NCBI GenBank assembly: GCA_017621205.1
Contig: JAGATQ010000051.1
Coordinates: forward strand, 1 to 64,000
DNA from: Lachnospira sp.
GTDB lineage: Bacteria; Bacillota; Clostridia; Lachnospirales; Lachnospiraceae
Length of the DNA stretch: 64,000 nt
Reading direction: 5' to 3'
How positions within the stretch are numbered: the stretch's first letter is position 1; each line of letters starts with the position of its first letter. Shown piece after piece: positions 9,831 through 33,239 of the stretch. Under the pieces are notes generated by a model. It did no database searches and was not told the origin of the DNA. It was given only the letters and a program-made list of their open reading frames with translations. A program made the position numbers and the translations under genes.

Positions 9831-11039
9831 TTATATAAACTCTTTCTTTATACTATGAATACGAATAAGAACAGGATCCTGACCATTATATACACTTCCG
9901 CCTTTATTTTCTATTGAAGACAGTATCTCAAAGCCAATCTTTTTTAATTTTTCCTCTAATTCCTCTTTACATATAAATCTTCGATAATGATCATTATATA
10001 TGTATTCATTATAACCAATGCATGTACCCATTCCGTATAGTTCATCATGAATACTTCTTGCTTCTATAAATAATGAACCATTTTTTTTCAAAGAATTCCA
10101 TGCATTTTGCAACATAAAATCTTCTTGATATGCTGTAATCGCATGTAAAGTAAATCGACTATAACAATAATCATGCTGCTTTTGGAAAATCGCATTATTA
10201 GATGCAAAATCTTCGCAAATAAAGGAAGAATTACCAATATCATCTCTATTATTTAGCATTATAATAGCCTTCTCAGAAATATCTATCCCCACAACTTCTA
10301 TGCCCTTTTTCATAAAATACAAACTATCCCTGCCATTGCCACAGCCAAATTCGATTAAGGATTTGCCCGGTTCCATATATTTCACAACTTCGGCAGCAAA
10401 TGGGCTTTCTGCATTATCTTGAGAAACAGGATTTCTCTGATAATATTGATTCCAATAATCAGTATCTCTATCAAAAGAATCTTTTTTTACTGGTTTATAA
10501 TTTATAATCTTTTTTACAGCTTCAGAAATCAGACAATCATCATTATTTTCAATTGTAATATCTGGATTAACTGGCAACTCGGCTTCTACATCAATTCCTG
10601 CAACACTTTTGGAGCCCATCTTTTCACTAGATGAATACAACCCCTTTTTATCTCTTTTGCGAAGAATTTCTATAGGAACATTAATATATATTTCTACATA
10701 ATTTTCAATGTTATTTCGATTCCAACTACGAACTTCATGAAACATAGCAACCGTACAACAAATAACGGAAATCCCCTGATCCGTTATTGTTTTACACAAG
10801 TTACTATATTTTTTTGCTCTTTCCTTCCGGTCTTCTTTACTATAACCACCACCAGTAATATATTTTAAAATATCACCATCTAATATTATTATATTTTCTA
10901 CTCCTTGATTTTTTAAGGTATAATACAATTTAGTTCCTATTGTTGTTTTCCCTGCACCAGATAAACCTGTTATCCAATATAGAGTTCCTTTTTTCATCAT
11001 GATAAAACGCTCCTCCCACCTGAATATCTTAATATACAA
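9831..11039 (-). CDS. Bifunctional adenylylsulfate (APS) kinase / class I SAM-dependent methyltransferase fusion.
   Basis: N-terminus: GTLYWITGLSGAGKTTIG...DGD, the CysC-type P-loop and APS kinase core. C-terminus: LIEFGCGNGRDSLYF...VGIDIS, methyltransferase motif I. Confidence 0.75.
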   Translation of the reverse strand: MYIKIFRWEERFIMMKKGTLYWITGLSGAGKTTIGTKLYYTLKNQGVENIIILDGDILKYITGGGYSKEDRKERAKKYSNLCKTITDQGISVICCTVAMFHEVRSWNRNNIENYVEIYINVPIEILRKRDKKGLYSSSEKMGSKSVAGIDVEAELPVNPDITIENNDDCLISEAVKKIINYKPVKKDSFDRDTDYWNQYYQRNPVSQDNAESPFAAEVVKYMEPGKSLIEFGCGNGRDSLYFMKKGIEVVGIDISEKAIIMLNNRDDIGNSSFICEDFASNNAIFQKQHDYCYSRFTLHAITAYQEDFMLQNAWNSLKKNGSLFIEARSIHDELYGMGTCIGYNEYIYNDHYRRFICKEELEEKLKKIGFEILSSIENKGGSVYNGQDPVLIRIHSIKKEFI

Positions 11040-11071
11040 TATATCAAATCGTCTACATACTAATTCAGAAT

Positions 11072-12940
11072 CTATTCCTTTTCTTTTATGTATCTACCAT
11101 CACAATAAACAAGTCCAAATATATTATATAGTTTTCTCGCCGCAACAAAAAAATCATCCTCAAAAACATTTATAAAGTAACTACCTGCTTTTTCTTTTAA
11201 TTCATCCATTCTTTCCCTGTATTGAGGATTATTCGCAAGATTCTCCATTCCAATGTCACAATTTACATATTCCTCTCTTCCATCCGCATATTGGTTATAA
11301 AACTCCGTTGAAGTGTAACATCCTCTACATTGAATACGCCGTATTATGCCGTCTCCCTCTTGTTCTATTAATTTATCTATAAATTTATCATTGTAAATAT
11401 CCAAATCTTGAGTTAATACATAATCAGACAATGCTTCTTCATAATTGCCACCTTCAATAATATAACGGATAATATAATACAATTTATTGCCTTGATAAAG
11501 TCTGGTCACCTTTTCTGACTTAATATCCTTACCTGATATCATCATAAGGATATGACCAATTTTTTCATGCCAGGTTCCCAAAGAATCGTCATAGCCTAAA
11601 TAATGATCTACTTTGCCATGATCACTCATAAAAATATTCACACTAAACTCACTATATGCTTTTTGATACCATTCCAATTGCTCATTTAAATATTTCTTAG
11701 CATCTTTATATTGTTCTATAGAACTCTCTTTATAGTTACCCGTTTCATGTTCTTCTATTGATAAAAAAGACCTGTTGTTATTTCCCCAAAATGGACGATG
11801 TGTCTCTACAGAATTATGAATACATACACACACAGGTTTATCCGACTGTATTAAAGCATCCCATGCCTCCCATTGCAATTGGGAACAAGATGTCTCATAA
11901 AAATTCCCCAAAAAAAGTGAATATCTTTTATACTCATCGGCTAATTTTTTAAGTGTACTGGTATGCCCTCCAATATAATGAAATGCATATCCATTATTCT
12001 CCAAATATTCAAGCAGCAAAACCTTATTATCGTATTTCTTCAAAGCATACAATTTATCATCAATAACCAATTGATTAGTCATAATCATTGCCATTGACAT
12101 ATTGGTAGCCCCCATAACACGATAAGCATTTTCAAAAAAAAGACTTGAAGCTTTTAGATTCTTAAGATAATTCAAGGTTTCAATTTCACCATAACATAAC
12201 GCATCAATCCAATTCCATACAATGTCTCTCTGCTTGCGTAATTTTAAAGAATGGTTAATCTTTTCAAGCAAACATTCAAATTCAGACCAAAACTCCTTGT
12301 ATAGATAGCTTTTTTCATAACCTTTTTTTGTATATTCATCAATATACTTTTTCGCATTTATAAAATCTTTTATTTCTAAATATGCTGCTATTATTTTGGA
12401 TAAAAGAATCTCAGCATCCAATTGTGTACTGCTTTGCATATAACATTGACGCAGAACATATAAATTCTCCCCATATACAGGACTGCTATAAAACGGTTGC
12501 AAACAGGCAATTCCCTTTTGTTGTAATATTTCATATAAGTCAATCACTTGAAAATCTTCATTTAAACAGTGTTTTAAAGTAAACAACTCTCTTGCCATTT
12601 CAACACGATGTTTAAATGATGAGATAATAAATATATCTATAGTTCTATTCGGAATATTTTTTATATCAATTACTTCTATCCCATGAAAACCTTCGATGGT
12701 TTTATTTCTATCTATCACATATTTAACTTTTTTACGGTTCGCTTCTGATAATACTTGTAATAATTTATCCGCATGCTCTCCCCCTCCCCGCAATGCAACA
12801 CATTTTTCTTCACCGAATGAGTCAAATATTTTATTAATCATTTCCGCTATATGATATTGAAAATGATATACTCCTGCATCAATTTTATACTTCAAAATTA
12901 ATACTTCTAATTCTTTATTAATATTTAAATTATCTTTCAT
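11072..12940 (-). CDS. Two-domain protein: N-terminal PglD_N-like Rossmann module plus alkaline-phosphatase-superfamily domain (sulfatase / LTA-synthase / phosphotransferase-like).
   Basis: N-terminus: VALRGGGEHADKLLQVL...VKYVIDRNK...IDIFIISS. Core: DIVWNWIDALCYGE (metal-binding), GGHTST (probable Thr nucleophile), FMSDHGKVDH (SDHG motif). Confidence 0.5.
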   Translation of the reverse strand: MKDNLNINKELEVLILKYKIDAGVYHFQYHIAEMINKIFDSFGEEKCVALRGGGEHADKLLQVLSEANRKKVKYVIDRNKTIEGFHGIEVIDIKNIPNRTIDIFIISSFKHRVEMARELFTLKHCLNEDFQVIDLYEILQQKGIACLQPFYSSPVYGENLYVLRQCYMQSSTQLDAEILLSKIIAAYLEIKDFINAKKYIDEYTKKGYEKSYLYKEFWSEFECLLEKINHSLKLRKQRDIVWNWIDALCYGEIETLNYLKNLKASSLFFENAYRVMGATNMSMAMIMTNQLVIDDKLYALKKYDNKVLLLEYLENNGYAFHYIGGHTSTLKKLADEYKRYSLFLGNFYETSCSQLQWEAWDALIQSDKPVCVCIHNSVETHRPFWGNNNRSFLSIEEHETGNYKESSIEQYKDAKKYLNEQLEWYQKAYSEFSVNIFMSDHGKVDHYLGYDDSLGTWHEKIGHILMMISGKDIKSEKVTRLYQGNKLYYIIRYIIEGGNYEEALSDYVLTQDLDIYNDKFIDKLIEQEGDGIIRRIQCRGCYTSTEFYNQYADGREEYVNCDIGMENLANNPQYRERMDELKEKAGSYFINVFEDDFFVAARKLYNIFGLVYCDGRYIKEKE

Positions 12941-13029
12941 CTAAGCCCCACCCCATTTTATATAGACAAATTCATCGAATATTTTTGCATTAATCAACGG
13001 ACACTAGTATCTGAGAAAAGCATTACTAT

Positions 13030-13644
13030 CTATAAACTTTTTAAATAATCAATCTCATGTGTTGGTAATTCATTTAATGGCAATGTTAAGGAATGATAGG
13101 TCATTTTTGCCGCTTGTTCCAGTACTTCCATACGATAAAAGGCTTCCAACAAATCCTTTCCTACAGTCAATACACCATGATTCTGTAATAAAACAATATT
13201 ATTGCCTATTACATTATTAGAGACCTCTTCTGCAAGCTCTTTTGTTCCCATCATCTTATATTTTGCTATTCCAATATTTTTAATGTTTTTACATGCTTCA
13301 GCAGTAAAATGCAAATTTATTGGCATTTTTGTAGCAGAAAAAAGGGTAGAGTAGTGAGGATGTGCATGAATAATTGCATGAATATCCGGCCTTTTTTGAT
13401 ATACTGCTATATGCATCATATATTCCATACTTGGCTTATGAATACCTTGAATAAAATTTGCCTCAATATCCAAAATTACAATATCTTCTTCTGTAAGATT
13501 GGCTTTATCGATACTGGAAGGAGTAATTAAAATTTCACTATCAGATATCTTATAACTAATATTTCCTCCCAGACTTGTTGTTAAATTTGAATTACACAAC
13601 CGTTTCATATAATTAATAATTTGTCTTTTCATTTTTTCCTCCAA
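13030..13644 (-). CDS. Class II aldolase/adducin family protein (fuculose-1-P aldolase / ribulose-5-P 4-epimerase-like).
   Basis: Metal-binding His cluster IIHAHPHYSTLFS and overall length and pattern match the class II aldolase fold. Confidence 0.7.
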   Translation of the reverse strand: MEEKMKRQIINYMKRLCNSNLTTSLGGNISYKISDSEILITPSSIDKANLTEEDIVILDIEANFIQGIHKPSMEYMMHIAVYQKRPDIHAIIHAHPHYSTLFSATKMPINLHFTAEACKNIKNIGIAKYKMMGTKELAEEVSNNVIGNNIVLLQNHGVLTVGKDLLEAFYRMEVLEQAAKMTYHSLTLPLNELPTHEIDYLKSL

Positions 13645-13669
13645 TCTATTTTTTATAGAAAAATACTCG

Positions 13670-14974
13670 TTATATTGCTTTGCTAAATTCTTCCTTCATA
13701 AAACGCTCTGCGGACATATACTGTAAAATCATATTTTCTCCTTGCGAATTATTTATTTGAAGCAGTTGATTAATCTCTTCTATAAGAATACATATTTCAT
13801 CAATACTATCTGCACAAAATCCTACGCATCCCATCCCCATTTCCGGATGTACTACTTCGCCAATGTTGACAGTAATCTTAACGTCAATATTTTTATTCAT
13901 CAATTCACTTTTGCCTAATATTTCTTTTACCACACCCTCTCGTCCACAACATAATTCATAGGAATAAATATATCTTTTTATTGCATGGCCTAAACCGCTC
14001 GGCAAATCTTTTTCCAAATGTTTTGTTCCCATTGCACACTCTACTGCCCATTTAACAATATCTATCTCTCCGACATGACTATATTCAATCGGGATAATAT
14101 CTGCTCCAAACCGATGTCCCATTTCAATCGCATAAAAATCTCCATTCTGGTTCATAATCACTTGAACCCAAGCAATGTTATCTTTACATCCCATTTCTTT
14201 AAGGGAACAAATAATTTTTTCATTCATTTGTTCCATAAAATCCTTGGCAAAAGGAGTTACATTACTGGCAACAAAGGAACTTTTCACTGCAAATTCTTTT
14301 GGTGCCATGAGAGAATGAAAAAATAAAAAGGCGACCTCTCCATCAGCCAGAGCATAATATGCTACAAATTCTTTCCCATTAATCTTTTCTTCTACGATAA
14401 TTTTAGGATTTTTTGATACTGACCGAGCTTTTCGATAGGCGTTTATTAACTCTTCTTTATTATTACAGAAAGAAATTCCTATACTGTCATTTTGGTCTAC
14501 CGGTTTAACCACAACTGGAAATTCTACTTGATCTAGTTCTTCCTCTGTTAATGCATCTGTTAAAAGGTAATCCCGCGGAACATTTAAACCTGTTTTTTTA
14601 CATACCTCTTTAAAATCTGCCTTGTTTTTTGAGTAATGAAAACTTTCCTTTGTACAATAACATGGCAGATGAAGTCTGTCGCACAACTCAATCATACTTT
14701 CTATGGCATAATCACTTGATGCAGTGATGATTGCATCAACTTCTTCTTCTCTACATTTCCTTTCTATTTTGTCATAGTCTGTATAACTATCCATCCAATA
14801 GGAATCTGCCATTTTTTTTGCTTCAGAATGTTCAGGAGCCACCCAATCTGTCACAATGGTATGTATCCCCTGACTCTGAGCATACTGTATAATTTCCCGA
14901 CTGCCAGGGCTTCCACCCAATAATAGCAATTTTTTTCCATTCATTTTTCTTTCCCTTTCATTTTCAGCCAGCAT
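13670..14974 (-). CDS. ATP-grasp domain ligase. Putative amino-acid or carboxylate ligase acting on a glycan precursor.
   Basis: N-terminal Rossmann (KKLLLLGGSPGSREIIQYA) followed by an ATP-grasp core (FPVVVKPVDQNDSIGISF...E.G). It sits inside the glycan locus. Confidence 0.65.
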   Translation of the reverse strand: MLAENERERKMNGKKLLLLGGSPGSREIIQYAQSQGIHTIVTDWVAPEHSEAKKMADSYWMDSYTDYDKIERKCREEEVDAIITASSDYAIESMIELCDRLHLPCYCTKESFHYSKNKADFKEVCKKTGLNVPRDYLLTDALTEEELDQVEFPVVVKPVDQNDSIGISFCNNKEELINAYRKARSVSKNPKIIVEEKINGKEFVAYYALADGEVAFLFFHSLMAPKEFAVKSSFVASNVTPFAKDFMEQMNEKIICSLKEMGCKDNIAWVQVIMNQNGDFYAIEMGHRFGADIIPIEYSHVGEIDIVKWAVECAMGTKHLEKDLPSGLGHAIKRYIYSYELCCGREGVVKEILGKSELMNKNIDVKITVNIGEVVHPEMGMGCVGFCADSIDEICILIEEINQLLQINNSQGENMILQYMSAERFMKEEFSKAI

Positions 14975-14999
14975 CCATGGGCAAATTAATTTATACGCC

Positions 15000-15425
15000 T
15001 TATACTACCTTTTCGATTCTAATTACCTGTGCTCCTTCTATAGAAAGCTTCACTGCTTCTTGGGCAAATTGCGGAAGGCCTTCTGTTATCATGCCAATTG
15101 CAGCACCATTCATAAAGCCATTCGGTCCAAAACACCACCCTCTATCATACCATAAGTCGAAGGTTACCGTCTGATCCTTCTGGGGCATTATAATAATTTC
15201 TCCAACCGACGGTAGGCAGGTCTCGTTTTCGTGCTCATATTTAGGGAAATTTGCAATGGGGAGCCAGATTTCGCCCCCTCCCCATTTGGCATGAAAGGCT
15301 TGTGTCTCAACTGGAAGAAGTGAAAGTAAACTTGCTGTAACAATTGGACATATGTCCTCTCTCAACGTGGCAATAGCACTTACACCAGACTTAATAAAAG
15401 TTATTTTTATTTTATTCATATACAA
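15000..15425 (-). CDS. Hypothetical protein.
   Basis: 141-aa ORF with no recognisable motif. It lies in an operon-like position between the ATP-grasp gene and the SDR gene. Confidence 0.4.
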   Translation of the reverse strand: MYMNKIKITFIKSGVSAIATLREDICPIVTASLLSLLPVETQAFHAKWGGGEIWLPIANFPKYEHENETCLPSVGEIIIMPQKDQTVTFDLWYDRGWCFGPNGFMNGAAIGMITEGLPQFAQEAVKLSIEGAQVIRIEKVV

Positions 15426-15452
15426 TTCCTCCTAATATCATATTAATATCTA

Positions 15453-16199
15453 CTAATTTTTCTCGAGCAATGTGTATCCACCATCTGCAACAATGATAGA
15501 ACCTGTAAAAATATTACTTGTAGCAAGCATGACATAAATTTCAGCAAGCTCTTCAGGCTTAATAAACCTTTCGATAGGAATAGAACCTAGCCATTTTTTT
15601 AGCAGATTACCTTGGGTTTTACTTAATGTTTCAGTCCAGACAAAACCAGGAGCGACCGCATTTACAAATATATCCGGAGCGTATTGCAAAGCAAGATTTT
15701 TCGTAAAACTATCTACCGCAGCTTTACCAGCACAATAGCCCATTAAATGTGTACGCCCAGCATAATTTATTCCCCTAATGGAACTCGTGTTAATAATATG
15801 TCCTTTCTTCATATATTGTTTTACTTTTTTGGAGCATAAAACAGTTGCAATAAGATTACTATTAATATCTCTAATCAATGTTGCTTCTGTAATTTCATCA
15901 AATGGTGTTGAATACGCATGTCCAACATTATTTACGAGAATATCTATAGAAGAATACTTCTCAGCGACCTTTTCAAACAGAAAATCAACACCTTGCTGGT
16001 TTGACAAGTCTGCTTGAATATAGATAGCCTTTCCCCCAGAATCAATAATTTCTTGTGCAGTAGCCTCTCCTTCTGTTCTTGAATTATGAGAAACTACAAT
16101 TACTTCAGCACCTTCAAATGCAAAGGTCTGTGCTATGGCCCTGCCAATTCCTGTTGAGGAACCGGTAATGAGTGCAACTTTGTCATATAATCTTTTCAT
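15453..16199 (-). CDS. Short-chain dehydrogenase/reductase (SDR) family oxidoreductase.
   Basis: TGSSTGIGRAIA NAD(P)-binding motif. A catalytic Y...K motif can be placed (YCAGK). Length 248 aa. Confidence 0.85.
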   Translation of the reverse strand: MKRLYDKVALITGSSTGIGRAIAQTFAFEGAEVIVVSHNSRTEGEATAQEIIDSGGKAIYIQADLSNQQGVDFLFEKVAEKYSSIDILVNNVGHAYSTPFDEITEATLIRDINSNLIATVLCSKKVKQYMKKGHIINTSSIRGINYAGRTHLMGYCAGKAAVDSFTKNLALQYAPDIFVNAVAPGFVWTETLSKTQGNLLKKWLGSIPIERFIKPEELAEIYVMLATSNIFTGSIIVADGGYTLLEKN

Positions 16200-16242
16200 A
16201 AATAATCTCCCCTATCACATGTTTAAATACAATAATAACCTG

Positions 16243-17370
16243 CTAATTGAGGAACTTCTCAATTGCTTGAATGATTGTCTCTTTATCCTCTTTGGAAAGC
16301 CCATAATACATTGGAAGACGGACTAATCGATTGCTTTCTGTTGTCGTATAATTATCTGTTCCACTGAAATATCCATACTTTATTCCGGCTTCTGAACTAT
16401 GTAATGGTACATAATGAAACACACAATATGCACCCTTTTCACGCATATAACGAATAAATCGCTCTCGCTGCTCCAAATCTTTTAGCTTAACATAAAACAT
16501 ATGGGCATTGTGCTTACAGTAATCTGGTACATATGCCAACTCTAAACAATGTTCTGCTTCTAAGTCCTTTAAATGTTCATAGTAAAATTGATAGCTTTTT
16601 AAACGGTCATCATTGATTTTTTCTGCACATTCCAGCTGCCCATATAATAGAGCTGCATTAATTTCACTTGGAAGAAACGAAGAACCTACGTCTACCCAGC
16701 TATATTTATCAACCTCACCGCGAAAAAACCTTGCACGGTTTGTTCCCTTTTCTCTAATGATTTCTGCCCGTTCCAAATATTGTTCATTATTAATGACTAA
16801 TGCTCCGCCTTCCCCCATTACATAGTTTTTGGTTTCATGAAAGCTGTAACAGCCTAAATCACCTATGGTACCCAATGACTGGTCTTTGTATGTAGCCATA
16901 ACGCCCTGTGCTGCATCCTCTATAATAGGAATGTTATATTTATGAGATATGTTATTTATTACGTCCATTTCACAAGCAACTCCGGCATAATGAACCACTA
17001 CAATAGCTTTTGTTTTTTCAGTAATTGCTGCTTCAATCAGTTTTTCATCTATGTTCATTGTATCCGGTCGAATATCTACGAACACCGTCTTTGCCCCGTA
17101 CATAGCAAAGGCATTGGCCGTGGATACAAAGGTATAAGAGGGCATAATCACTTCATCGCCGGGTTGGATATCCAATAAAATTGCTGCCATCTCTAATGCA
17201 GCAGTGCACGATGTTGTCAACAAAACCTTTTTTGCCGAGAATTTGTTCTCCATCCATTCACTGCATAATTTTGTGTATTTACCATCTCCTGCAATTTCGC
17301 TGGACTTTATAACATCCGCGACATATTCCTGTGCTTTTGGTATATATGGTGCTCTATTAAATGTTATCAT
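16243..17370 (-). CDS. DegT/DnrJ/EryC1/StrS-family PLP-dependent sugar aminotransferase (NDP-4-keto-6-deoxyhexose aminotransferase-like).
   Basis: Characteristic fold-type I sugar aminotransferase sequence. The active-site Lys region SFHETKNY is recognisable. Length 375 aa. Confidence 0.85.
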   Translation of the reverse strand: MITFNRAPYIPKAQEYVADVIKSSEIAGDGKYTKLCSEWMENKFSAKKVLLTTSCTAALEMAAILLDIQPGDEVIMPSYTFVSTANAFAMYGAKTVFVDIRPDTMNIDEKLIEAAITEKTKAIVVVHYAGVACEMDVINNISHKYNIPIIEDAAQGVMATYKDQSLGTIGDLGCYSFHETKNYVMGEGGALVINNEQYLERAEIIREKGTNRARFFRGEVDKYSWVDVGSSFLPSEINAALLYGQLECAEKINDDRLKSYQFYYEHLKDLEAEHCLELAYVPDYCKHNAHMFYVKLKDLEQRERFIRYMREKGAYCVFHYVPLHSSEAGIKYGYFSGTDNYTTTESNRLVRLPMYYGLSKEDKETIIQAIEKFLN

Positions 17371-17401
17371 TGTTATCTTTCCTTTCTGTATTGTTACCTA
17401 A

Positions 17402-18883: not shown

Positions 18884-18926
18884 ACTCTTCCCCCCTTCAT
18901 TATAAACTTACTTACGTAAACTTCTG

Positions 18927-23620: not shown

Positions 23621-24036
23621 TGCTCCACCATTCCTTCCAAAAATTCTCCCAAAAACAAAAGCTGTTTTTCATCAATCCGTTTTGATAAATCGTCCTTTAT
23701 CCTTTGATAATATTTTACCGGAGTAATAATTATTTTTTCACCAGCGTACTCCTCCATTAAATCATCAAAGGAAATTGCCCGGATTCCCTTGACATTCACA
23801 GATAGTCCGCCATTTTTATCTACTACCGCTTTCACATCCACCATAGTATGAATCGCATTATATAGCTGCACTCCCAGATAGCCACCACCATAGATATAGA
23901 GAGATTGAATATGAAACAATTCTAACCGTTCCTTCATCCACTCCGTCTCTAACATCCTTCCCATCATATTATAACAGGAGGACTCAATCCTATAATCCTT
24001 TACATATAAATCAAAAAGCTCTTCTTCAAAATTCAT
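23617..24036 (-). CDS. Stand-alone PglD_N-like small Rossmann module protein.
   Basis: The 139-aa protein consists essentially of the module LYIYGGGYLGVQLYNAI...VKAVVDKNGGLSVNVKGIRAI...KIIITP. The same module is fused to seven other enzymes in the locus. Confidence 0.4.
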   Translation of the reverse strand: MNFEEELFDLYVKDYRIESSCYNMMGRMLETEWMKERLELFHIQSLYIYGGGYLGVQLYNAIHTMVDVKAVVDKNGGLSVNVKGIRAISFDDLMEEYAGEKIIITPVKYYQRIKDDLSKRIDEKQLLFLGEFLEGMVEQ

Positions 24037-24074
24037 TTATAATCACCTCATCACGAAACATCTGGAGGGTTTTG

Positions 24075-25391: not shown

Positions 25392-25392
25392 A

Positions 25393-26547
25393 TCAAAAGA
25401 TATACTCTATATGTAATTCTTCAAGCTGCCTGCAAACTTCTTCACGGAATTGTACAGATATACCAAGTAATACACATACATTCTGTTCTTGTGAGATTTC
25501 CCCCAATTCATATATTTTATGCTCATGACAATATTCTTTATCCTTATGCCCATTTGACACTATATGCCCCTCATATGTTACCTCAAGCAGTTCTAAAAAA
25601 CGGACTATTCTGTCAGATGCTTTACCAGTTCCATAAATGTACAATCTCTTTTTAGCCAAGACTGCTTTCATCAGTTCTTCATAATTGCTAAAGCTCTCAA
25701 ACATTTCTTTTTTATGTTGTATGTGCAAATCAGCTAAATGCTTTCCTTCAAATTTTTCCCTTTCTCTTTTTAAAGTAACATAAAACTCTATACTATTTTT
25801 TTCAGTAGTTATCTCATCAATTTTAAAATCTATATATCCCAAAATATTCAATTGATAAATCAATATTTCAAATGATTTGGGGGTAAATACACCAGAATGC
25901 ATATCACAATATTTTTCATCGCTGTATTCTTTGATGCTTGAATCCATATCATCTAACCAATCATTATTTTCATCCCATCTAAACGTCATATCTTTATCAA
26001 AATATATCCCGCTATTAGGCACATAGGTACCATTTTCTTTTACACGAACCTGATTCAACAGGACGTCAATCATTGTCCCAATGGAATGATTATTGGCCTT
26101 TGTTCTATATACATGGTTATCAATCACTGTTCTAATTGATACCTCTTCTCTAAAATAATCAAACTCATATCTCTTATCAGGAATAACTAATTTAATTTTC
26201 CCATCATCCTTTAATAATGTTGAACAATCATTTATAAACTCGATTATGTCAACAACATGCTCAATCAAGTGCGAAGCTGCAATAACATCATAGTAACCTT
26301 TTTTCCCTATTGAAGATGCGTAATGCCTCGCAACTACAAAATCAACCTCTTCAATTTTATCAGCGTCATATCCTATGCTATCCTTATACTTTTGCCTCAA
26401 TTCTTCACCGGACAAGTAGTCCGCTATTTCTACATTATATCCATCGGATTTAGGATACATGGGAAAACACAACGGACCTATCTCTAATATTAAGCTATCC
26501 TTATCAACCCCTCTACATGCAAATTCTTTTTTTATTTTGTTCATCAT
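25393..26547 (-). CDS. Methyltransferase-like domain protein with C-terminal PglD_N-like module.
   Basis: N-terminus: LEIGPL...DVIAASHLIEHVVD...DDGKIKLVIPD, class-I MTase-like. C-terminus: LYIYGTGKASDRIVRFLE... Confidence 0.45.
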   Translation of the reverse strand: MMNKIKKEFACRGVDKDSLILEIGPLCFPMYPKSDGYNVEIADYLSGEELRQKYKDSIGYDADKIEEVDFVVARHYASSIGKKGYYDVIAASHLIEHVVDIIEFINDCSTLLKDDGKIKLVIPDKRYEFDYFREEVSIRTVIDNHVYRTKANNHSIGTMIDVLLNQVRVKENGTYVPNSGIYFDKDMTFRWDENNDWLDDMDSSIKEYSDEKYCDMHSGVFTPKSFEILIYQLNILGYIDFKIDEITTEKNSIEFYVTLKREREKFEGKHLADLHIQHKKEMFESFSNYEELMKAVLAKKRLYIYGTGKASDRIVRFLELLEVTYEGHIVSNGHKDKEYCHEHKIYELGEISQEQNVCVLLGISVQFREEVCRQLEELHIEYIF

Positions 26548-26612: not shown

Positions 26613-28952
26613 TCACACTGAATATATCCTCGGCTCTCTCTCCAAACCCTCATAACACTCCAATATAAAATCAGCTATCTCACTGATAGAAAACAGCGAC
26701 GTCACAATATAGGTATCATTGCCCCTTCTCATTGCCTCATAAAGCCCCATCACCTCAACACCTTCTTTCAAGGTGCCCCAAATGGATTCCTTCCTGTCAA
26801 TAAAACAGGTCACACCAATATGGTACATCTGGCAAAGGAAATAAAACTGTCTTCCGTTCTCCCCTGCACCATATAGGGCAATCTCTTTGATGCCGTCTGC
26901 CTGCACCTGCTCCACGACCTCCTGCATGGATTTGATAATTTCATTCTGGGAACCATTTTTCAGTGCTCTTCTGACATAGTAAAATTCGTCCAGCAGCGTT
27001 ACGGTTCCCTTGGGCCATGTAATATTGCTGTTTTGATAAGTGTAGCTTACATTGCACTTGTCGATGAAATCTACACCCTTTTCTCTTGCCAGAGCAAGGT
27101 GCTCCTCAGTAATAATCCCCTTTTTATAATTCGTTCCAAAATTGGTATCTGCCTCAAAATCTGCCAAAAGCTCTGCCTCTTCTTTTCGTGGCATATCAAT
27201 CAACCGATGGAGTATCATAAACGTTTCCCTTCGGTTTGCAAGACAGGCATCTGCAATATCCGGCTTTCTTCTTCGAAATGCAAACCAATATTTTTGGAAA
27301 GTAAATGCGCCTTCAAAAGCTATATTTGTGAAATGTTCATTATCTACCCCTGCTGACTGCAATGGAACAATGACATCCTTCTGTCTTTCATAGCCTATGG
27401 TGCTGCCCTCCGTCACTGAAATGAGTTTTTCCAAGACATCCGTCGTCCGGTGAATGGTAGGAATCAAATCCCGGTTTTCTGCAAAGGTGCCAAACATTCC
27501 TTCAAAATCCAGACCATTATAAAGCCGTTCTTCCGTTACCCCTACTGCAAGAAAATGCTTCATTCTATGTGGTACCTGTTCTATCGTAAGGCACTGCTCC
27601 ATCCACATTTGTATCCTGCCAAAAAAGCCAATATCTATCGTAGCGATACCATCCATATCTCCTATTTCCTGCTTTAAATAATCCACCAGCTTTCGTCGTT
27701 CCTGCTCTATATATGTTTCAATCTGTCTGACATTCTTTTCCTCAAGGAAACGATTAATAATATACTCCTTTAATGTCCCCTTCCCATATTCCATTCTATG
27801 GGTTTCTTTATGCTTTACATCAAGATATTCCTTTATTTCAGAAAAATCACTCTCAGCAAGTCCCATTAACTGAAGCGATTCCCGAATCGTTAAATTTCTG
27901 GCTCCAATCATGTTCTCAATTTCTTCCCGGGTTACCATAGTAATAGATGGAATATAGGTAACCTTTCGGGATACATAAATCGGATGAACTGTAAGCTCAA
28001 GACCCAGCTCCTTCGCTTCCCTCTTTAACAGCTCTCCAAGCAGGTATCCTTCTCTCATCAACGGATATATTCTCGTAATATGAAGCTTTTGCAGACGCTT
28101 TACAACCCACGATATGTATAAGGAAAGCACCGGACCTGTCACCGCAGCGCCCAACTCATAGGCTGTTTTTTCCCTGCCTTCATAAGAAGAAGCTGCCATA
28201 CACATTTTACGCAGAGACAGTATTCCCGGCTGTGGTACATTATGTCTGATTTTTTCATAGTCAAAAATACTGTATAGCCTGTCTGGTATCGCATCGTAAT
28301 GAAATGCCTGCATCCCACGCTTTAACGGTTGCTCATAATCTGCATTTTTATTATCACCAATATGTAGCATATCCTTAGGCAAAATATCCGGATATTTTTG
28401 AAAGAGAATATCAAATAATTCTCCGGTTTGCTTATTGCACTTATATTCATTAGAGACAATGATATCATCAAACATTGCCGTCTCTATCTGGTTAGCAGTC
28501 AAGATATCCCGAATGGTATCACTGCTAAGATACATATCGGATACGAGAACAAGGATACATCCTTTGCTTTTCATTTTACGAAGCCAATCCAGAATAACAA
28601 AATTAGGATAGCAGTATTTCTTTTCCAACTCTATTTCTAATTCCTTTAAAGCAGTAAGGTCCTTCGCAATATAATCGGGATACATCTGATAGATGTCCTC
28701 TAAGGTGACCTCCCGGCAAACTGCATTCGTGCGGGCTCTTCTTTCCATCTCTGCCCGAAATTTCATATACTCCTTCGGATACATACTTGTCTTAGCAATA
28801 TCTCTTTGTTCTGCTTCCTTCCATACCAACTCAAACAAGTCGACCGGTTTTGCTACCGCCCGAAGCAATAACGTATCAAATATATCTACACTGATTAACT
28901 GATAGTCCTCTACTCCTGGTAATGTCACTGTCTCTCCTCCTACCCATCCCAC
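26613..28952 (-). CDS. Large HAD-superfamily (haloacid dehalogenase-like) domain protein with C-terminal PglD_N-like module. Possibly a phosphatase or phosphotransferase of the glycan pathway.
   Basis: HAD motif I, ISVDIFDTLLLRA (DxDT), and motif IV-like HIGDNKNAD. C-terminus: IALYGAGENGRQFYFLCQ...FIDRKESIWG. The middle 400 aa has no recognisable motifs. Confidence 0.5.
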   Translation of the reverse strand: MGWVGGETVTLPGVEDYQLISVDIFDTLLLRAVAKPVDLFELVWKEAEQRDIAKTSMYPKEYMKFRAEMERRARTNAVCREVTLEDIYQMYPDYIAKDLTALKELEIELEKKYCYPNFVILDWLRKMKSKGCILVLVSDMYLSSDTIRDILTANQIETAMFDDIIVSNEYKCNKQTGELFDILFQKYPDILPKDMLHIGDNKNADYEQPLKRGMQAFHYDAIPDRLYSIFDYEKIRHNVPQPGILSLRKMCMAASSYEGREKTAYELGAAVTGPVLSLYISWVVKRLQKLHITRIYPLMREGYLLGELLKREAKELGLELTVHPIYVSRKVTYIPSITMVTREEIENMIGARNLTIRESLQLMGLAESDFSEIKEYLDVKHKETHRMEYGKGTLKEYIINRFLEEKNVRQIETYIEQERRKLVDYLKQEIGDMDGIATIDIGFFGRIQMWMEQCLTIEQVPHRMKHFLAVGVTEERLYNGLDFEGMFGTFAENRDLIPTIHRTTDVLEKLISVTEGSTIGYERQKDVIVPLQSAGVDNEHFTNIAFEGAFTFQKYWFAFRRRKPDIADACLANRRETFMILHRLIDMPRKEEAELLADFEADTNFGTNYKKGIITEEHLALAREKGVDFIDKCNVSYTYQNSNITWPKGTVTLLDEFYYVRRALKNGSQNEIIKSMQEVVEQVQADGIKEIALYGAGENGRQFYFLCQMYHIGVTCFIDRKESIWGTLKEGVEVMGLYEAMRRGNDTYIVTSLFSISEIADFILECYEGLEREPRIYSV

Positions 28953-29965
28953 TCGATTACAATCTTTCCCATCTGCTTTACAGCATCCTTCTCAAAGGCT
29001 TTCGGTATATCATAAAGGCCACGGACCTTCACGACTTCGTTAACCAGACTGGTTAAATACTCTGTTATGTCATCCTGCTGATTGTAAAGCTTTAACAGCT
29101 CCTCAAAATCCTGTCTGCCACTGCGGCTGCTGCCAAAAATCCGAAGTCCCTTTTCCAGTACCATCCTTGTGGGAATCTTTGGTGGCAGCTCCGATACTCC
29201 AAGCAATGCAATGGTGCCTTCCGGCTGAATACGGTCCACAATCTGTCCAATAGCTGATTCCGACCCGATTCCACCAACACATTCCACTGCATGGTCTACA
29301 GAAAAATTCTCCGGCACTTCACTCGTCAGCATCGTCTCATCCACAAAGGTAAAGTTACTTAGCTTCTCTGCATTCACCCCGCATACGGTAACCTTAGAAT
29401 CGGGCAGCATCTTCTTTAGCAGAAGCGCCGTGATATAACCCAAATTGCCATCTCCCCATATCCCAATTCTTTCCTTGCGATTATGGGAAAACATAAGCAA
29501 TCGTTTCATGGCATGAAGCCCAACCGATACCAGCTCGGTAAAGGAAGCAACCTCATCCGTCAGTTCCTCTGGAAGTGGAAGCACCCGGTCAGCAGTAGTA
29601 TAAATCAGCTCCTGCATAAATCCATCATATCCACTGGAACGAAAATGGCTGCTACGGAGGTAATTCTCACTGATAATCTCATCCTGCTCTGTTGGTACAT
29701 TGGGAATCAGCACCACCCGCTGTCCAACAGTAACGTCATCTGCTGCACTGTAAACCACTGTGCCTATCGCCTCATGAATCAACGCCATAGGCAGCTTCTG
29801 CTTTAATATTTCAACCGGACGCTGTCCCTGATAATACCGCTGGTCTGCATGGCAGACAGATAGATAGGTTGGTCTCACAATCACTGTATTTTTCTTTATC
29901 TCCTCATTTTCAAATGCCACCTCAAAGCGTTTCGGTGCCACCAAACGATAGACCGTATTTAACAT
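28940..29965 (-). CDS. Zinc-dependent medium-chain alcohol dehydrogenase family. TarJ-like ribulose-5-phosphate reductase candidate.
   Basis: MDR fold with catalytic zinc ligands (LSVCHADQRY). It lies immediately upstream of, and overlaps by a few codons with, the cytidylyltransferase gene, matching the TarI/TarJ pairing. Confidence 0.7.
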   Translation of the reverse strand: MLNTVYRLVAPKRFEVAFENEEIKKNTVIVRPTYLSVCHADQRYYQGQRPVEILKQKLPMALIHEAIGTVVYSAADDVTVGQRVVLIPNVPTEQDEIISENYLRSSHFRSSGYDGFMQELIYTTADRVLPLPEELTDEVASFTELVSVGLHAMKRLLMFSHNRKERIGIWGDGNLGYITALLLKKMLPDSKVTVCGVNAEKLSNFTFVDETMLTSEVPENFSVDHAVECVGGIGSESAIGQIVDRIQPEGTIALLGVSELPPKIPTRMVLEKGLRIFGSSRSGRQDFEELLKLYNQQDDITEYLTSLVNEVVKVRGLYDIPKAFEKDAVKQMGKIVIEWDG

Positions 29966-29968
29966 AGG

Positions 29969-30688
29969 CTACTCCTCTTTCAACAATGATTTTGCCACAT
30001 CCACGTCATAGGGGTAGGTAATCTTAATATTGTAAACCTCTCCATCTACCAGCTTCACATTCTTTCCCTTTATTACACATATCTTCGCCGCATCCGTCAA
30101 AACCTGCTTCTCCGCTTCATTTAAGGACTGGTACAAATCTTTCAGCATCTGTGCCTTAAAGGATTGCGGCGTCTGTCCCTGATACATAAAGCTACGGTTG
30201 GGAATCTCACTGATACTCTGTCCATCCGTGCTGGTCACAATCGTATCCGTCGCGGGTATTACTGTATCACATGCCCCGGTCTCCTTAGCCGCCTGAATAT
30301 TCTCCTCAATAATGCGGGTAGTCACAAAGGGTCTTACCGCATCGTGCGTGACCACAATCGTTTCCTCATCCATAGCTCCTTTTTTTTCAATATAGGAGAT
30401 GCCGTTCATCAGGGTATCGTTTCTTGTCGCACCGCCCTCCAGAACAACAAGCTTCTCACCGCCATCCGGAAGGTATTTCTTCAGCAGATTCCCCGTGTGA
30501 TTCATCCATTGCTTCGGTGTCAGAACCAGTATCTGCTGAAACTTAGGATTCAGATAAAACTTCTCTATCGTATGAATGAGTATCGGTTTTCCCTTTAATT
30601 CAATAAATTGCTTTGGCTTTTCCATGTTACCCATACGCTGTCCGATTCCTCCAGCAAGAATGAGTGCATAACAATTGGTTTCCTGCAT
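29969..30688 (-). CDS. IspD/TarI-family cytidylyltransferase (ribitol-5-phosphate cytidylyltransferase candidate).
   Basis: N-terminus YALILAGGIGQRMG (nucleotidyltransferase glycine loop). Length is 239 aa. It is paired with the MDR reductase. Confidence 0.8.
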   Translation of the reverse strand: MQETNCYALILAGGIGQRMGNMEKPKQFIELKGKPILIHTIEKFYLNPKFQQILVLTPKQWMNHTGNLLKKYLPDGGEKLVVLEGGATRNDTLMNGISYIEKKGAMDEETIVVTHDAVRPFVTTRIIEENIQAAKETGACDTVIPATDTIVTSTDGQSISEIPNRSFMYQGQTPQSFKAQMLKDLYQSLNEAEKQVLTDAAKICVIKGKNVKLVDGEVYNIKITYPYDVDVAKSLLKEE

Positions 30689-30776
30689 AATATGCCTCCC
30701 TGTTTTTTGTATCCTGCTCGCTTAAAGCATAATTTTTATCTGTTTATTCTATCTCTTACTCATGTAGAGGATGACT

Positions 30777-32153
30777 TTACTTGTTTCTTCTGGTTTTTAA
30801 CTTCAGAATCCCGGCAATAGCCCTCACTGTCCGTCTACAAGACCTGGCATCTGCCTGCTTGTACATCCTGCTGCGGGACTCCTGTCTTAACGGTAATGCC
30901 TCATCCCGCCTTTTCACTGCTTCGATGCATGCAATCAGTTCCTCCATCGTGTGTGCCTTTTCCTCTGGCATATACTCTTCCCAGTCAAAATAGGCATCCC
31001 TCGTGTCAGAGGAATATTCCTCATAATCATAATGAAATGCCACCACCGGACGGTCCAGTAGCTTGTAATCGCTGTAAACAGACGAATAATCCGCTATCAT
31101 CAAATCAATTTCCCCTAAAAAGGAATTAATATCCACCTCTGCCGGAACATGGTAAATATTGCTATACTCCATCGCTTCAAATTCCTTTTTAAAGGTGGAT
31201 TTCGGATGCAGCTTGCAGACCAGAATCATGTTGTGTTCCTTAAGATAAGCATTAAATCTGGAAAGCTCCATCACCTCTAAAAACTTACTTTCCGAGGGGC
31301 GAAAGGTCGGAACATAGGACAGCAACTGATAGCCATCCTCCTTCCATTCCTTAAGCTTCCTGTGAACCTCCTGCTCCTCCCGAAAATAGATATTTTGTAT
31401 TCCACTGTCCTCAAATAAAATATCATTCCTTGGATATCCTGTCTCTATAATATGCTCCATCGGAACCTGAAAGGCTCTTGCAAATATCTCGCTCATCATC
31501 GGTGCCGTCGTTAAGATGTAGTGACTTGGCTTCTCGTCAGATAATCTTCTTGGGAAGTATTGAAACCGTTCCCATGCATTCTTCGGATGACGCACCTTAT
31601 CATGTTCATTGTCATAGTTAATCCGCTTATTTCCAACCCCATGCCACAGATTAAACTTCACTGCCCTGCCACTCTGCCAGAAATTGATATCCTTAGAATA
31701 ATTGTCAAAGATATAGATACCTCCCCGAAGTGCCATCCATATCCCTTTTAGAGAGTGATAATAGTATGCCTCATACCCCTCTTCCTTTAGAAACTGTACG
31801 ACATCCTTATTGTGGCTTATCCAAACCGCCCGGACAGACTTTACATACTCATCCTCTTCAAAATAATGTCCTGCATTCCTATAGTCAGCCACTACCTTCT
31901 TCACCTTATCAGAAGCATAATCACTATGCTGGCTCACATATAAATACAGGTATCTCGGATTATCCGCAAACCGTCGTCCAAAGGTGGAGCCAAACAGCCA
32001 AAGCTTCTTGTTTCTGGGCATGAAAAAAGATAACCAATAGATTGGCAGCAATAATAATTGTCCCCAGTATTTCACACCATTGATTATCTTCATAATATTC
32101 CTTCCGCCTCCTTGCCTCAGGCCAAGACTCTCCTTGGCAATGCCTCCCTGCAT
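30777..32153 (-). CDS. CDP-glycerol/CDP-ribitol polyol-phosphate transferase (TagB/TagF/TarL family). The true start is probably the internal Met near 32090.
   Basis: The conserved TagF-family C-terminal region is recognisable: YILTTAPMMSEIFARAFQVPMEHIIETGYPRNDILFE...VLLYMPTFR-like block (YVPTFRP), HPK. Confidence 0.75.
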   Translation of the reverse strand: MQGGIAKESLGLRQGGGRNIMKIINGVKYWGQLLLLPIYWLSFFMPRNKKLWLFGSTFGRRFADNPRYLYLYVSQHSDYASDKVKKVVADYRNAGHYFEEDEYVKSVRAVWISHNKDVVQFLKEEGYEAYYYHSLKGIWMALRGGIYIFDNYSKDINFWQSGRAVKFNLWHGVGNKRINYDNEHDKVRHPKNAWERFQYFPRRLSDEKPSHYILTTAPMMSEIFARAFQVPMEHIIETGYPRNDILFEDSGIQNIYFREEQEVHRKLKEWKEDGYQLLSYVPTFRPSESKFLEVMELSRFNAYLKEHNMILVCKLHPKSTFKKEFEAMEYSNIYHVPAEVDINSFLGEIDLMIADYSSVYSDYKLLDRPVVAFHYDYEEYSSDTRDAYFDWEEYMPEEKAHTMEELIACIEAVKRRDEALPLRQESRSRMYKQADARSCRRTVRAIAGILKLKTRRNK

Positions 32154-32213
32154 TTCTATCTGAATAATATATCGGCAGAAGTGCTTATAATTATAATATT
32201 ACATTATTTTCAC

Positions 32214-33239
32214 TTAATTCCAATATAAATAAACAATACAACTAACATTATCTTTTTGATTGAAATAAAAACGAATCGCATACTTTTTCTTATATTTATA
32301 TTCCAAATAGTAACCCGCACGTTGTTTTAACTTTTTATATGATTTAGTTTTCTCATATTTCTTGGAAGCATTTGGTTTTAAAAATTGTACCAATTCATCC
32401 TGTACACCAATGATTTTTTTATTTACCTTACCATACTTTGATATAACCGTTTTTTTAGAAGAACCTAAATGAATCCCTCTAGCTGTAACTATCTTAACAT
32501 TCTGTTTATACTCTTTTTCTTTTTCCAACCAATTACACATTGCCATAGTAGCTGACGTAGTCTGCAGATAGTAATCATTGGACTGATTTGGATCTGCTAC
32601 ACAGGTGGCAATCCAATCCCGTCTCGTTTCACATACCCTGTATGCAAAATCACATTTTTTTAATGAAGATTGCTTTTGATAAGAAGCAAATCGAAATGTC
32701 TTATCAAGATTAGTTCCATAAGCAATATAAGATACTTCTTCAGCTTCATTAAAGTAAAAGCGAAGCTGAAGAAGACAATTCTCTTCGTATAAATATCCAT
32801 AAGTCACATAGGATTGTACATTTTGCAAAAATGTCTGATATGCTTTATTCCCTTTTCGAAACAACTGATAATAATACAATGCCGGCTCCCATTGTGTATC
32901 TACCATGTTCACAGAAGTCTCGCCATATGCATCCAACACTTGTTGCTTAGTGCTGCCAACAGTAATTCCCCTCTTAGTTGTCAGAATTGAGTCCTTATCC
33001 GAACCAACTATGTAATATTCTGCAAAATACTTTCCTCCTACCCCTTCAGCATAACGAGCATTTTCAAGAAAATCAATATAGTTAAATTTATCCTTTTTCT
33101 CCCCACACCTTAACACAAAATCTTTTTCTGTTAATATATTTTTCTCCGCATATACTTGAGGTGCATTCATTCCTAAAATTATCAGCAAGATACTTGTTAT
33201 AACAGTTATTTTTATCAGTCTTTTCATGGCAATCCCCAC
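32214..33239 (-). CDS. Secreted hypothetical protein with internal duplicated module.
   Basis: N-terminal signal peptide (KRLIKITVITSILLIILGMNAPQVYA). Two copies of a ...RGI(T/H)(V/L)GS.K..V...YG... repeat. Confidence 0.5.
   Translation of the reverse strand: MGIAMKRLIKITVITSILLIILGMNAPQVYAEKNILTEKDFVLRCGEKKDKFNYIDFLENARYAEGVGGKYFAEYYIVGSDKDSILTTKRGITVGSTKQQVLDAYGETSVNMVDTQWEPALYYYQLFRKGNKAYQTFLQNVQSYVTYGYLYEENCLLQLRFYFNEAEEVSYIAYGTNLDKTFRFASYQKQSSLKKCDFAYRVCETRRDWIATCVADPNQSNDYYLQTTSATMAMCNWLEKEKEYKQNVKIVTARGIHLGSSKKTVISKYGKVNKKIIGVQDELVQFLKPNASKKYEKTKSYKKLKQRAGYYLEYKYKKKYAIRFYFNQKDNVSCIVYLYWN

Follow-up and report, generated by a model that had tools for sequence, protein, structure and literature searches.

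This analysis concerns a predicted glycosylation island in the metagenome-assembled genome of a gut Lachnospira sp. (assembly GCA_017621205.1, contig JAGATQ010000051.1). The window is the whole stretch of 64,000 nt that was analysed, and the proteins of its source contig are deposited as MBO4998894-MBO4998941. An earlier note on this DNA described a single minus-strand gene run from 9831 to 33239, and that is what is found. Twenty co-directional open reading frames (ORFs) follow each other on the minus strand from 33239 down to 9831. The spacing between them is mostly below 90 bp. The largest gap, 259 bp, lies between a glycosyltransferase gene that ends at 21197 and a sulfotransferase-fold gene that starts at 20937. 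The run recurs almost identically on many metagenome contigs, and related loci used for the neighbourhood comparison carry L-numbers (L015 to L176). All genes of the run described below are on the minus strand.

Nineteen of the twenty proteins lack a hydrophobic segment. The exception is encoded at 32214-33239. This protein is unassigned, matches nothing in Pfam or NCBIfam, and starts like a signal peptide, residues 2-31 forming the hydrophobic segment. Its membership of the pathway is uncertain. Polytopic proteins occur in the window solely as unrelated transporters, at 40.9, 43.9 and 62.2 kb. There is no initiating polyprenyl-phosphate transferase, flippase, polymerase, ABC exporter or LCP ligase anywhere in the 64 kb, which agrees with the earlier note's remark that initiation, flipping or polymerization, and export are missing here.

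The composition of the run is not uniform. The 15 genes at 9831-26547 are AT-rich, with a mean GC content of 0.339 and a mean GC at third codon positions (GC3) of 0.285. The four genes at 26613-32153 have a mean GC of 0.441 and GC3 of 0.482, and this block is indistinguishable from the 25 flank genes (0.426 and 0.441). At the boundary, the last AT-rich gene (25393-26547) has a GC of 0.324 and the first gene of native composition (26613-28952) one of 0.413. The gene at 32214-33239 is AT-rich again (GC 0.326). The whole locus had been called AT-rich, which is true of 9831-26547 and 32214-33239 but not of 26613-32153. The idea that it was all acquired horizontally does not hold up well for a mosaic of this kind. 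A promoter and terminator scan gave 57 promoter-like sites where 52.6 are expected, and no homopolymer tracts hinting at phase variation were found.

The two halves of this mosaic are linked by a shared domain. The N-terminal domain of the sulfotransferase family was turned into a hidden Markov model (HMM), which was searched against the ORFs of the window. This N-domain HMM matches seven ORFs with E-values from 2e-28 to 3e-6, all of them within the run, with some on either side of the GC boundary. The carriers are the sulfotransferase-fold protein, a glycosyltransferase of family 56 (GT56), both GT2 glycosyltransferases, the methyltransferase at 25393-26547, a HAD protein and a stand-alone protein of 139 aa. 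The matching Pfam domain, PF22674 (C2185-like_N), is also carried by homologues of an alkaline-phosphatase-like protein of the run. Its structural relatives are CAC2185 and the nucleotide-sugar-binding N-domains of WbpM-like, VioB, PglB and TcaB9-type (C-methyltransferase) enzymes. The presence of one domain on seven enzymes may mark them as a single assembly line, in which nucleotide-sugar binding or docking would be candidate roles for it.

The block of native composition holds the genes for CDP-ribitol. TarJ (28940-29965), a ribulose-5-phosphate reductase, aligns over residues 1-339 with residues 1-339 of PDB 6xh9, the Staphylococcus aureus Ribulose-5-phosphate reductase 1, at 5.9e-117. TarI (29969-30688), a D-ribitol-5-phosphate cytidylyltransferase, scores 361 bits in NF001183 against a cutoff of 166 and matches PF01128 at 5.8e-46. 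The two genes are 3 bp apart. These matches establish them as the predicted makers of CDP-ribitol or a close pentitol analogue, and CDP-ribitol is the sole activated nucleotide made within the island. Upstream is a single-domain CDP-alditol phosphotransferase of the TagF/TarL family (30777-32153; PF04464 at 6.1e-55, profile positions 20-365 of 367). It is 458 aa long and matches TarL (9e-18) and TagF (2.9e-16) in the PDB, with scores far under the equivalog cutoffs of TarL, TarF and TarB. All three family calls had been made from the letters alone, and the profiles bear them out. The fourth gene of the block (26613-28952) encodes a protein of 779 aa with an N-terminal HAD-like domain (TIGR02252 at 1.2e-9), a large unassigned middle and a C-terminal C2185-like domain (N-domain HMM 1.1e-11, residues 692-779).

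The sulfotransferase-fold gene at 19636-20937 lies on the other side of the boundary. Its probable start is 20937 and not 20970. The protein has an N-terminal C2185-like Rossmann domain followed by a Pfam NKWYS domain (PF10364), and its match to Sulfotransfer_3 is only marginal. Across 91 aligned family members, the Lys (K175) in Q-x-GKVGSST and the Arg (R234) in LVRDPxARxIS are invariant, and one His is nearly so. The two motifs correspond to those that bind the 5'-phosphosulfate (PSB) and the 3'-phosphate (PB) of the sulfate donor, as the earlier note had read them. A direct sequence search of the PDB with the protein gave no match; profiles and structure models were needed. The NKWYS family profile reaches heparan sulfate 3-O-sulfotransferase at 7e-4, and the protein has the alpha/beta fold of sulfotransferases. 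Two results that the earlier note would have counted against itself, a different fold for this protein and a lack of support for TarI, TarJ and TagF, did not come out. Neighbourhoods were counted in 79 genome loci that hold relatives, the best match in this genome scan being 33% identical. An APS-kinase domain (APS, adenosine 5'-phosphosulfate) lies within 10 kb in 15 of the 79, always as a CysN-CysC fusion after CysD on the same strand. Since the binding motifs, the fold profile and the CysD-CysNC neighbours agree, the family is very probably dependent on 3'-phosphoadenosine 5'-phosphosulfate (PAPS), and sulfation by the protein of the window is plausible. In L173, the closest variant island, the slot of this gene between GT2 and WbqC (L173:3262-4828) is about 300 bp with two tiny ORFs, which suggests that the gene was lost there by deletion while the kinase-methyltransferase and alkaline-phosphatase-like genes were retained.

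The last gene of the run, at 9831-11000, encodes a P-loop kinase of the APS kinase family (residues 1-170, here 10461-11000) fused to an S-adenosylmethionine (SAM) methyltransferase (residues 180-389). An ATG at 11000 is the start on record, and it is a more probable start than 11039. The methyltransferase half matches the TehB and Methyltransf families and resembles TehB and phosphoethanolamine N-methyltransferases. The earlier note called this an APS kinase fused to a SAM methyltransferase and listed it as part of a PAPS-dependent sulfation. The domain families stand (PF01583 at 4.2e-31), but the kinase falls short of the apsK equivalog, with 119.4 against a cutoff of 138.7 for TIGR00455. 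It is also under the cutoffs of NF002059 (119.6 against 244) and NF003013 (97.9 against 163), and it passes NF004041 with 162 bits against 127. Its closest relatives are short kinases of about 170 aa that are 49-63% identical. The JGI annotation names two close relatives, P0277 and P0308, cytidine diphosphoramidate kinase, and identity to P0268, P0285 and P0309 is 53-55%. Within the subfamily the window kinase belongs to a sub-clade with a T-V/I-A-M motif that is partnered with a TehB-like methyltransferase.

One can imagine that the kinase nonetheless works on APS and that the sulfotransferase-fold enzyme of the island draws its PAPS from it, with APS coming from an ATP sulfurylase elsewhere in the genome. 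The kinase does match PF01583, the P-loop GLSGAGKTT and the LDGD and SKEDR motifs are retained, and solved APS kinases are the best PDB matches, yet at 2e-25. The sulfotransferase-fold gene is 8.6 kb upstream in the same strand run, and other Lachnospiraceae islands pair its family with CysD-CysNC. We consider this scenario doubtful. Besides the missed cutoff, the ISP motif of the two aligned solved APS kinases is replaced by (S/A)M across the whole subfamily. Among 80 metagenome loci of the subfamily none has a CysD or CysN homologue, and the window has none either; as the earlier note said, it holds no ATP sulfurylase. A glutamine-kinase-like gene of the phosphoramidate cassette is present in 22 of the 80 loci, with a cytidylyltransferase in 18 and a hydrolase in 12. 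PEP-mutase-like matches (PEP, phosphoenolpyruvate) occur in 6, one of them together with a phosphonopyruvate decarboxylase (Ppd), and the window type of methyltransferase is found in 8. The kinase-methyltransferase pair occurs without a sulfotransferase gene in L173, L089 and L175; conversely, L086-L088 and L176 have the sulfotransferase gene and no kinase. Nor is it obvious what a fused methyltransferase would do in sulfation. Judged by its sequence relationships, the kinase belongs to a subfamily tied to phosphoramidate and phosphonate chemistry and not to sulfate activation, and the proposed supply of PAPS does not hold up well. Short genes annotated as "adenylyl-sulfate kinase" in glycan loci are a trap, and should not be counted as evidence for sulfation.

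The known pathway of this kind makes the O-methyl phosphoramidate (MeOPN) of Campylobacter jejuni. The roles of its kinase Cj1415 and of Cj1416-1418 are taken from PMC11800397; methyltransferases and the transferases Cj1421/1422 complete it. The window kinase shares the NF004041 subfamily and is likewise coupled to a methyltransferase, but this is TehB- or phosphoethanolamine-methyltransferase-like and not UbiE-like, and the transferase candidate beside it has an alkaline-phosphatase fold. It must be noted that the likeness to Cj1415 comes through NF004041 and the kinase of locus L092, the Cj1415 sequence itself being outside the alignment. The L092 kinase is 54-57% identical to the window kinase and scores 201.7 bits in NF004041. 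It lies between two flagellin genes, beside a methyltransferase and a protein of the PPDK_N/PEP-utilizer type that scores 993 bits in NF004508. A full Cj1415-1418-like set is completed by a nucleotidyltransferase and a glutamine amidotransferase, the latter with gamma-glutamyl-CDP-amidate hydrolase as its best match in NCBIfam. This cassette (L092:2989-20442, in the Clostridium beijerinckii metagenome-assembled genome (MAG) GCA_015058565.1, SVCD01000013.1) follows FliS-FliD-FliT and has a UbiE-like methyltransferase; MeOPN-type chemistry may be widespread outside Campylobacter, also on flagellin glycans. In the window, the glutamine kinase, the cytidylyltransferase of that pathway and gamma-glutamyl-CDP-amidate hydrolase have no homologue at E<0.01. 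We rejected both the MeOPN pathway proper, for want of Cj1416-1418 homologues, and an aminoethylphosphonate pathway, for want of a PEP mutase or Ppd.

Next to the fusion, at 11072-12940, is a soluble protein of the alkaline-phosphatase (AlkP) superfamily. Its fold and the positions of the Thr nucleophile and metal ligands place it in the LtaS/EptA/sulfatase branch, and it has an N-terminal Rossmann-like and helical region. The residue at the nucleophile position is an invariant Thr in G-A-T-N-M-S, so the earlier call of an AlkP-superfamily enzyme with a Thr nucleophile was right. A role as formylglycine (type I) sulfatase was rejected, given that Thr and the lack of a CxPxR motif in the alignment. 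A direct sequence search of the PDB gave no match. By homology the protein is a candidate phosphoryl-group transferase. LtaS/LtaP, EptA/MCR-1 and GacH share the superfamily and the Thr nucleophile, but they are membrane-anchored, extracytoplasmic and use phospholipid donors. The protein of the window has no hydrophobic segment and thus no N-terminal multi-pass membrane domain. It is predicted to be soluble and cytoplasmic, has the Rossmann-like N-region and lies beside a nucleotide 3'-kinase-type gene.

Related loci treat the kinase and its neighbours as a module. Its constant partner is the TehB-like methyltransferase, which is a separate gene beside the kinase in L089 and L091 (1e-58 to 1e-62) and fused to it in L173. 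In the closest islands the soluble AlkP-fold protein is a partner as well. L089 has the Sulfatase-family protein, kinase and methyltransferase in the order of the window, within a flagellin/Maf/NeuB island. In L175 the AlkP homologue stands between a Maf gene and a set of PEP mutase, Ppd, aminotransferase and kinase. The whole module is present without the sulfotransferase gene in L173, and the two are found together only in the window and its near-identical copies. Because they assort independently among related islands, the module appears to be separate from sulfation. Most likely, as far as homology can tell, its product is a nucleotide donor, phosphorylated at the 3' position, that serves to add a methylated phosphoryl-type group.

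Some kinase loci add to this. L175:238-13742 (gut metagenome contig ERZ27279225 k141_200077) begins with Maf, a C2185_N+Sulfatase protein homologous to 11072-12940, a nucleotidyltransferase and a CTP_transf_like+PEP mutase protein. A phosphonopyruvate-decarboxylase-like thiamine pyrophosphate enzyme, an aminotransferase, a Cj1415-type kinase, NeuB and a second Sulfatase-family protein follow, and the locus thereby couples an aminoethylphosphonate pathway to the kinase/AlkP module. Elsewhere large proteins beside Cj1415-type kinases combine a C2185-like Rossmann domain with sulfotransferase-style motifs (P-x-SGNT; VR(E/N)P....S; VRFEDLK..P..L..LC.WLGI). They are found at L091:7531-9918, L094:2859-5471 and L095:2849-5443, and weaker forms of the motifs in L109, L123, L126, L132, L138-L140 and L148. 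These proteins are candidate transferases for 3'-phospho-nucleotide donors, and since they carry such motifs a handover from kinase to a sulfotransferase-fold enzyme is conceivable. When a kinase-associated protein family of 795 aa was compared by hhalign with the NKWYS family, the Rossmann domain that both share was all that came out, the match between catalytic domains not being significant. We would put forward only tentatively that Cj1415-type kinases and soluble AlkP-fold or sulfotransferase-fold transferases form a general, undescribed system with a PAPS-like logic. In it 3'-phosphorylated cytidine-nucleotide donors would bring small phosphoryl-type groups (phosphoramidate, aminoethylphosphonate and methylated forms) to protein-linked glycans, and the donor of the Lachnospira member would be none of the known ones.

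Most of the rest of the run would supply sugars and their transfer. WecE (16243-17370), a dTDP-4-amino-4,6-dideoxyhexose transaminase, scores 613.5 bits in NF008687 (cutoff 375) and 610.9 in TIGR02379 (cutoff 434.85). NCBI names it dTDP-4-amino-4,6-dideoxygalactose transaminase. These scores establish a dTDP-4-amino-4,6-dideoxyhexose as its predicted product; the dTDP-glucose 4,6-dehydratase required upstream is not in the window. Around it are a WecF-like GT56 with an N-terminal C2185-like Rossmann domain (17402-18883; NF002756 at 7.5e-40, PF07429, N-domain HMM 2.7e-13), a WbqC-family protein (18927-19622; PF08889 at 1.8e-76), a short-chain dehydrogenase/reductase (15453-16199; PF13561 and PF00106, 1e-47 to 1e-49) and an ATP-grasp carboxylate-amine ligase (13670-14974; PF13535, PF07478, PF02786). 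The earlier note had grouped these five as a toolkit for a 4-amino-6-deoxyhexose, and its family calls hold by profile match. Orthologues of the ligase (1e-97 to 1e-184) adjoin NKWYS, WbqC, GT56 and DegT genes in L086-L088, and by analogy it is a candidate for N-acylating the 4-amino sugar. Between these genes and the AlkP gene, or among them, are a DUF3830 protein (15000-15425; PF12903 at 1e-18) and a class II aldolase/AraD-family enzyme (13030-13644; PF00596 at 1.4e-49) that is under the cutoffs of the NCBIfam FucA, AraD and OtnC types.

The tally of enzymes comes to four glycosyltransferases (GT2, GT4, GT2 and GT56) and two further methyltransferases. The first GT2 (21197-22516; PF00535 at 3.4e-25) has a C-terminal C2185-like Rossmann domain (N-domain HMM 1e-14, residues 341-431), and its orthologues (1e-179) head the conserved block in L086-L088. 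It is preceded by a GT4 (Glycos_transf_1) enzyme (22535-23620; PF00534 at 1.4e-10) and by the stand-alone C2185-like protein (23617-24036; no Pfam match, N-domain HMM 3.3e-6), which has equivalents in L086 and L091. The second GT2 (24075-25391) is rhamnosyltransferase-like (TIGR01556 at 1.2e-25) and has the domain at its N-terminus (2.6e-7). In the SAM methyltransferase at 25393-26547 (PF13489 at 2.5e-7) it is C-terminal (2.3e-10, residues 301-386).

We argue that the operon-like island directs cytoplasmic assembly, without lipid carrier, flippase or polymerase, of a short, heavily decorated O-glycan on an exported protein, and we put the chance of this being correct at about even. The leading candidate for the acceptor, and the most likely one, is flagellin. 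The TagF-family enzyme would add ribitol-phosphate to a glycan residue, much as FtaD of Clostridioides difficile uses a CDP donor to attach phospho-N-methylthreonine. Acylation of the 4-amino group would fall to WbqC and the ATP-grasp ligase, and sulfation to the sulfotransferase-fold enzyme, with PAPS that is made elsewhere. The fusion of kinase and methyltransferase would, together with the AlkP-fold protein beside it, not be a supply of PAPS but a module of its own, in which a nucleotide-activated (cytidine) donor is phosphorylated at the 3' position and a small, methylated group of the phosphoryl type is attached.

Two flagellin systems offer precedents. FtaD is a member of the TagF family that transfers a CDP-activated phospho-alcohol to GlcNAc-FliC in the cytoplasm (bioRxiv 10.64898/2026.02.12.704994). 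The C. difficile type A system (FgtA and FtaABCD, FtaD being the CDP-N-methylthreonine:GlcNAc phosphotransferase) resembles the island in having a soluble TagF-family enzyme with a cytidylyltransferase, a HAD-like protein and one or more methyltransferases. The island is four times larger, is not beside fliC and has no recognisable FgtA. It has a TarI/TarJ pair as its cytidylyltransferase and reductase, so the donor should be CDP-ribitol and not CDP-threonine. The type B locus (GT1-GT3, CDR20291_0244-0247) encodes GT2s, a methyltransferase, a PF13535 ATP-grasp enzyme and a DegT-type aminotransferase, all shared with the island, and puts an N-acylated amino-deoxyhexose at the tip of the glycan (PMC5207246). 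This is a sulfonated peptidylamido sugar, comparable with the acylated sugar proposed here, but its sulfur is a sulfonate and no sulfotransferase is encoded there (PMC5207246). Type B has a 3-amino sugar (FdtB-like), whereas the island has the 4-aminotransferase WecE, GT56, WbqC and the sulfotransferase-fold enzyme.

Flagellin islands in related loci contain the same parts. L015, L019 and L028 have flagellin, GT2 and further genes, two NKWYS genes, CysD and CysNC on one strand, directly downstream of flagellin, and in L065 a flagellin gene is downstream near the locus end. These four Lachnospiraceae islands share with the window the sulfotransferase-fold family with its N-terminal domain, GT2s and soluble-only sets, and L028 has an IspD-type cytidylyltransferase. 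They have their own PAPS synthesis and a flagellin neighbour, and the window island has neither. L089 reads flagellin, Maf, NeuB, and then Sulfatase-family protein, kinase and TehB-like methyltransferase. L092 reads FliD, FliT, flagellin, glycosyltransferases, kinase, methyltransferase, GlnK-like protein, hydrolase, cytidylyltransferase and, further on, flagellin again. The order in L175 is Maf, AlkP homologue, PEP mutase, Ppd, aminotransferase, kinase, NeuB. Proteins with at least six transmembrane segments make up 15 of 633 ORFs in loci with N-domain-type sulfotransferase relatives (28 of the 39 loci have none) and 40 of 527 in short-type loci. L028:3-15655 (a Hespellia sp. MAG), like L015 and L019, is a flagellin island with a self-contained sulfation toolkit: flagellin, GT2, DUF4422, the IspD-type cytidylyltransferase and two NKWYS-family genes, then CysD, CysN-CysC and, as additions of L028, a CysQ-like gene of the inositol monophosphatase family and a sulfate-type solute-binding protein.

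The obvious competitor is a lipid-linked glycopolymer, either capsular or a secondary cell-wall polymer, that contains ribitol-phosphate units and sulfate and is branched with a 4-amino sugar. The genes for initiation (TagO/WbaP-type), export (TagGH or Wzx/Wzy) and ligation would then lie elsewhere. This is close to what the earlier note proposed. TarI, TarJ and the TagF family are the canonical toolkit of wall teichoic acid, and WecE with a WecF-like GT56 is the lipid III pair of enterobacterial common antigen. Teichoic-acid genes are frequently divided among several loci, as in S. aureus and Bacillus subtilis. Classical GT56 (WecF) and TagF/TarL enzymes are peripheral membrane proteins whose acceptors are linked to undecaprenyl, so the missing transmembrane segments are compatible with a lipid-linked polymer. 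This point weighs against our protein glycan, and so do several others. The window has no flagellin gene by motif or phmmer searches and no Maf or flagellar gene, and the closest island relatives (L086-L088, L173-L176) are not next to flagellin within their contigs. It has no gene for PAPS synthesis and no precursor pathway for the kinase module (glutamine kinase, PEP mutase or ATP sulfurylase). The functional assignments throughout come from homology, fold and gene neighbourhood. We still think the wall polymer unlikely. No membrane-associated step is encoded within 64 kb. The S. aureus branch for CDP-ribitol (TarI/TarJ/TarL) has its counterparts here, but TarO, TarA, TarB, TarGH and LCP are absent from the window, the transferase is the short 458-aa single-domain form, and its operon is shared with soluble C2185-domain enzymes. 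Genuine flagellin islands contain this accessory domain and these modules too, and loci of the N-domain type are depleted of polytopic proteins.

A third scenario has some other acceptor that is accessible in the cytoplasm, such as proteins of the spore surface (crust or exosporium) that are modified in the mother cell; alternatively, the product would be a soluble glycoside, either nucleotide-linked or a secondary metabolite. All the enzymes are soluble and no flagellin gene is nearby, a spoIIID gene lies near the related kinase locus L090, and N-acylated 4-amino-6-deoxyhexoses of the anthrose type are found on exosporium glycoproteins of Bacillus. We regard this as improbable: neither the run nor its immediate surroundings contain genes for sporulation or natural products (NRPS/PKS, transporters), and the related modules that have an identifiable neighbour have flagellin or Maf. 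The protein glycan is the most economical reading because the set is soluble only, the N-domain loci are poor in polytopic proteins, and FtaD and the type B glycan provide precedents. A glycopolymer with parts elsewhere is less economical than such a membrane-independent pathway, considering the soluble enzymes, the shared domain, the modules flanking flagellin and FtaD.

The surroundings of the run deserve a brief description. The left flank (14-9604) has a cut-off serine recombinase (Recombinase, Zn_ribbon_recom, DUF4368), an unassigned ORF of 683 aa, a Band 7 protein, RtcB and an HTH-Uma2 protein, and two plus-strand ORFs there, likewise unassigned, converge on the island. This flank may be a mobile-element remnant bordering the AT-rich part. 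Upstream of the run by 4-6 kb, at 37206-39241, are a DUF4474 gene (minus strand) and a DUF4422 gene (plus strand). The glycosylation region may reach beyond 33239, because a DUF4422 gene is also inside the L028 flagellin island. A second compositional outlier is the gene for an Imm26-domain (immunity) protein at 46371-47684, which is AT-richer than its neighbours (GC 0.339, GC3 0.315). Related islands have, at their end or inside them, a gene for a small protein of about 243-245 aa that resembles a tyrosine recombinase (its Phage_integrase matches are weak) and is encoded on the same strand as the glycan genes (L086:11420-12151, L087:13579-end, L173:13387-14124, L174:5757-6494). It could mediate variation or inversion of the island.

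Taken singly, glycosylation islands of the flagellin type, TarIJ/TagF chemistry and sulfotransferases are nothing new. The literature searched has no description of their combination, of a soluble AlkP-fold partner for a Cj1415-type kinase or of the recurrent C2185-like domain. No relevant publication came up for NKWYS, for CAC2185/2G6T, for sulfated glycans of flagellin or for flagellin carrying phosphoramidate. Within the island, it is the kinase/AlkP module that most deserves experiments. To our knowledge MeOPN-type phosphoramidate has so far been associated with the capsules of Campylobacter, and transfer from CDP-ribitol with teichoic acids and with dystroglycan. Lachnospira is a motile genus, and Lachnospiraceae flagellins are among the main bacterial antigens for the human gut immune system; we know of almost nothing on their glycosylation. 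If the island and its relatives put ribitol-phosphate, sulfate and phosphoramidate- or phosphonate-like groups on flagellin, this would give concrete, testable glycan structures for commensal flagella, and would extend MeOPN-type phosphoramidate and CDP-ribitol transfer into abundant gut Firmicutes.

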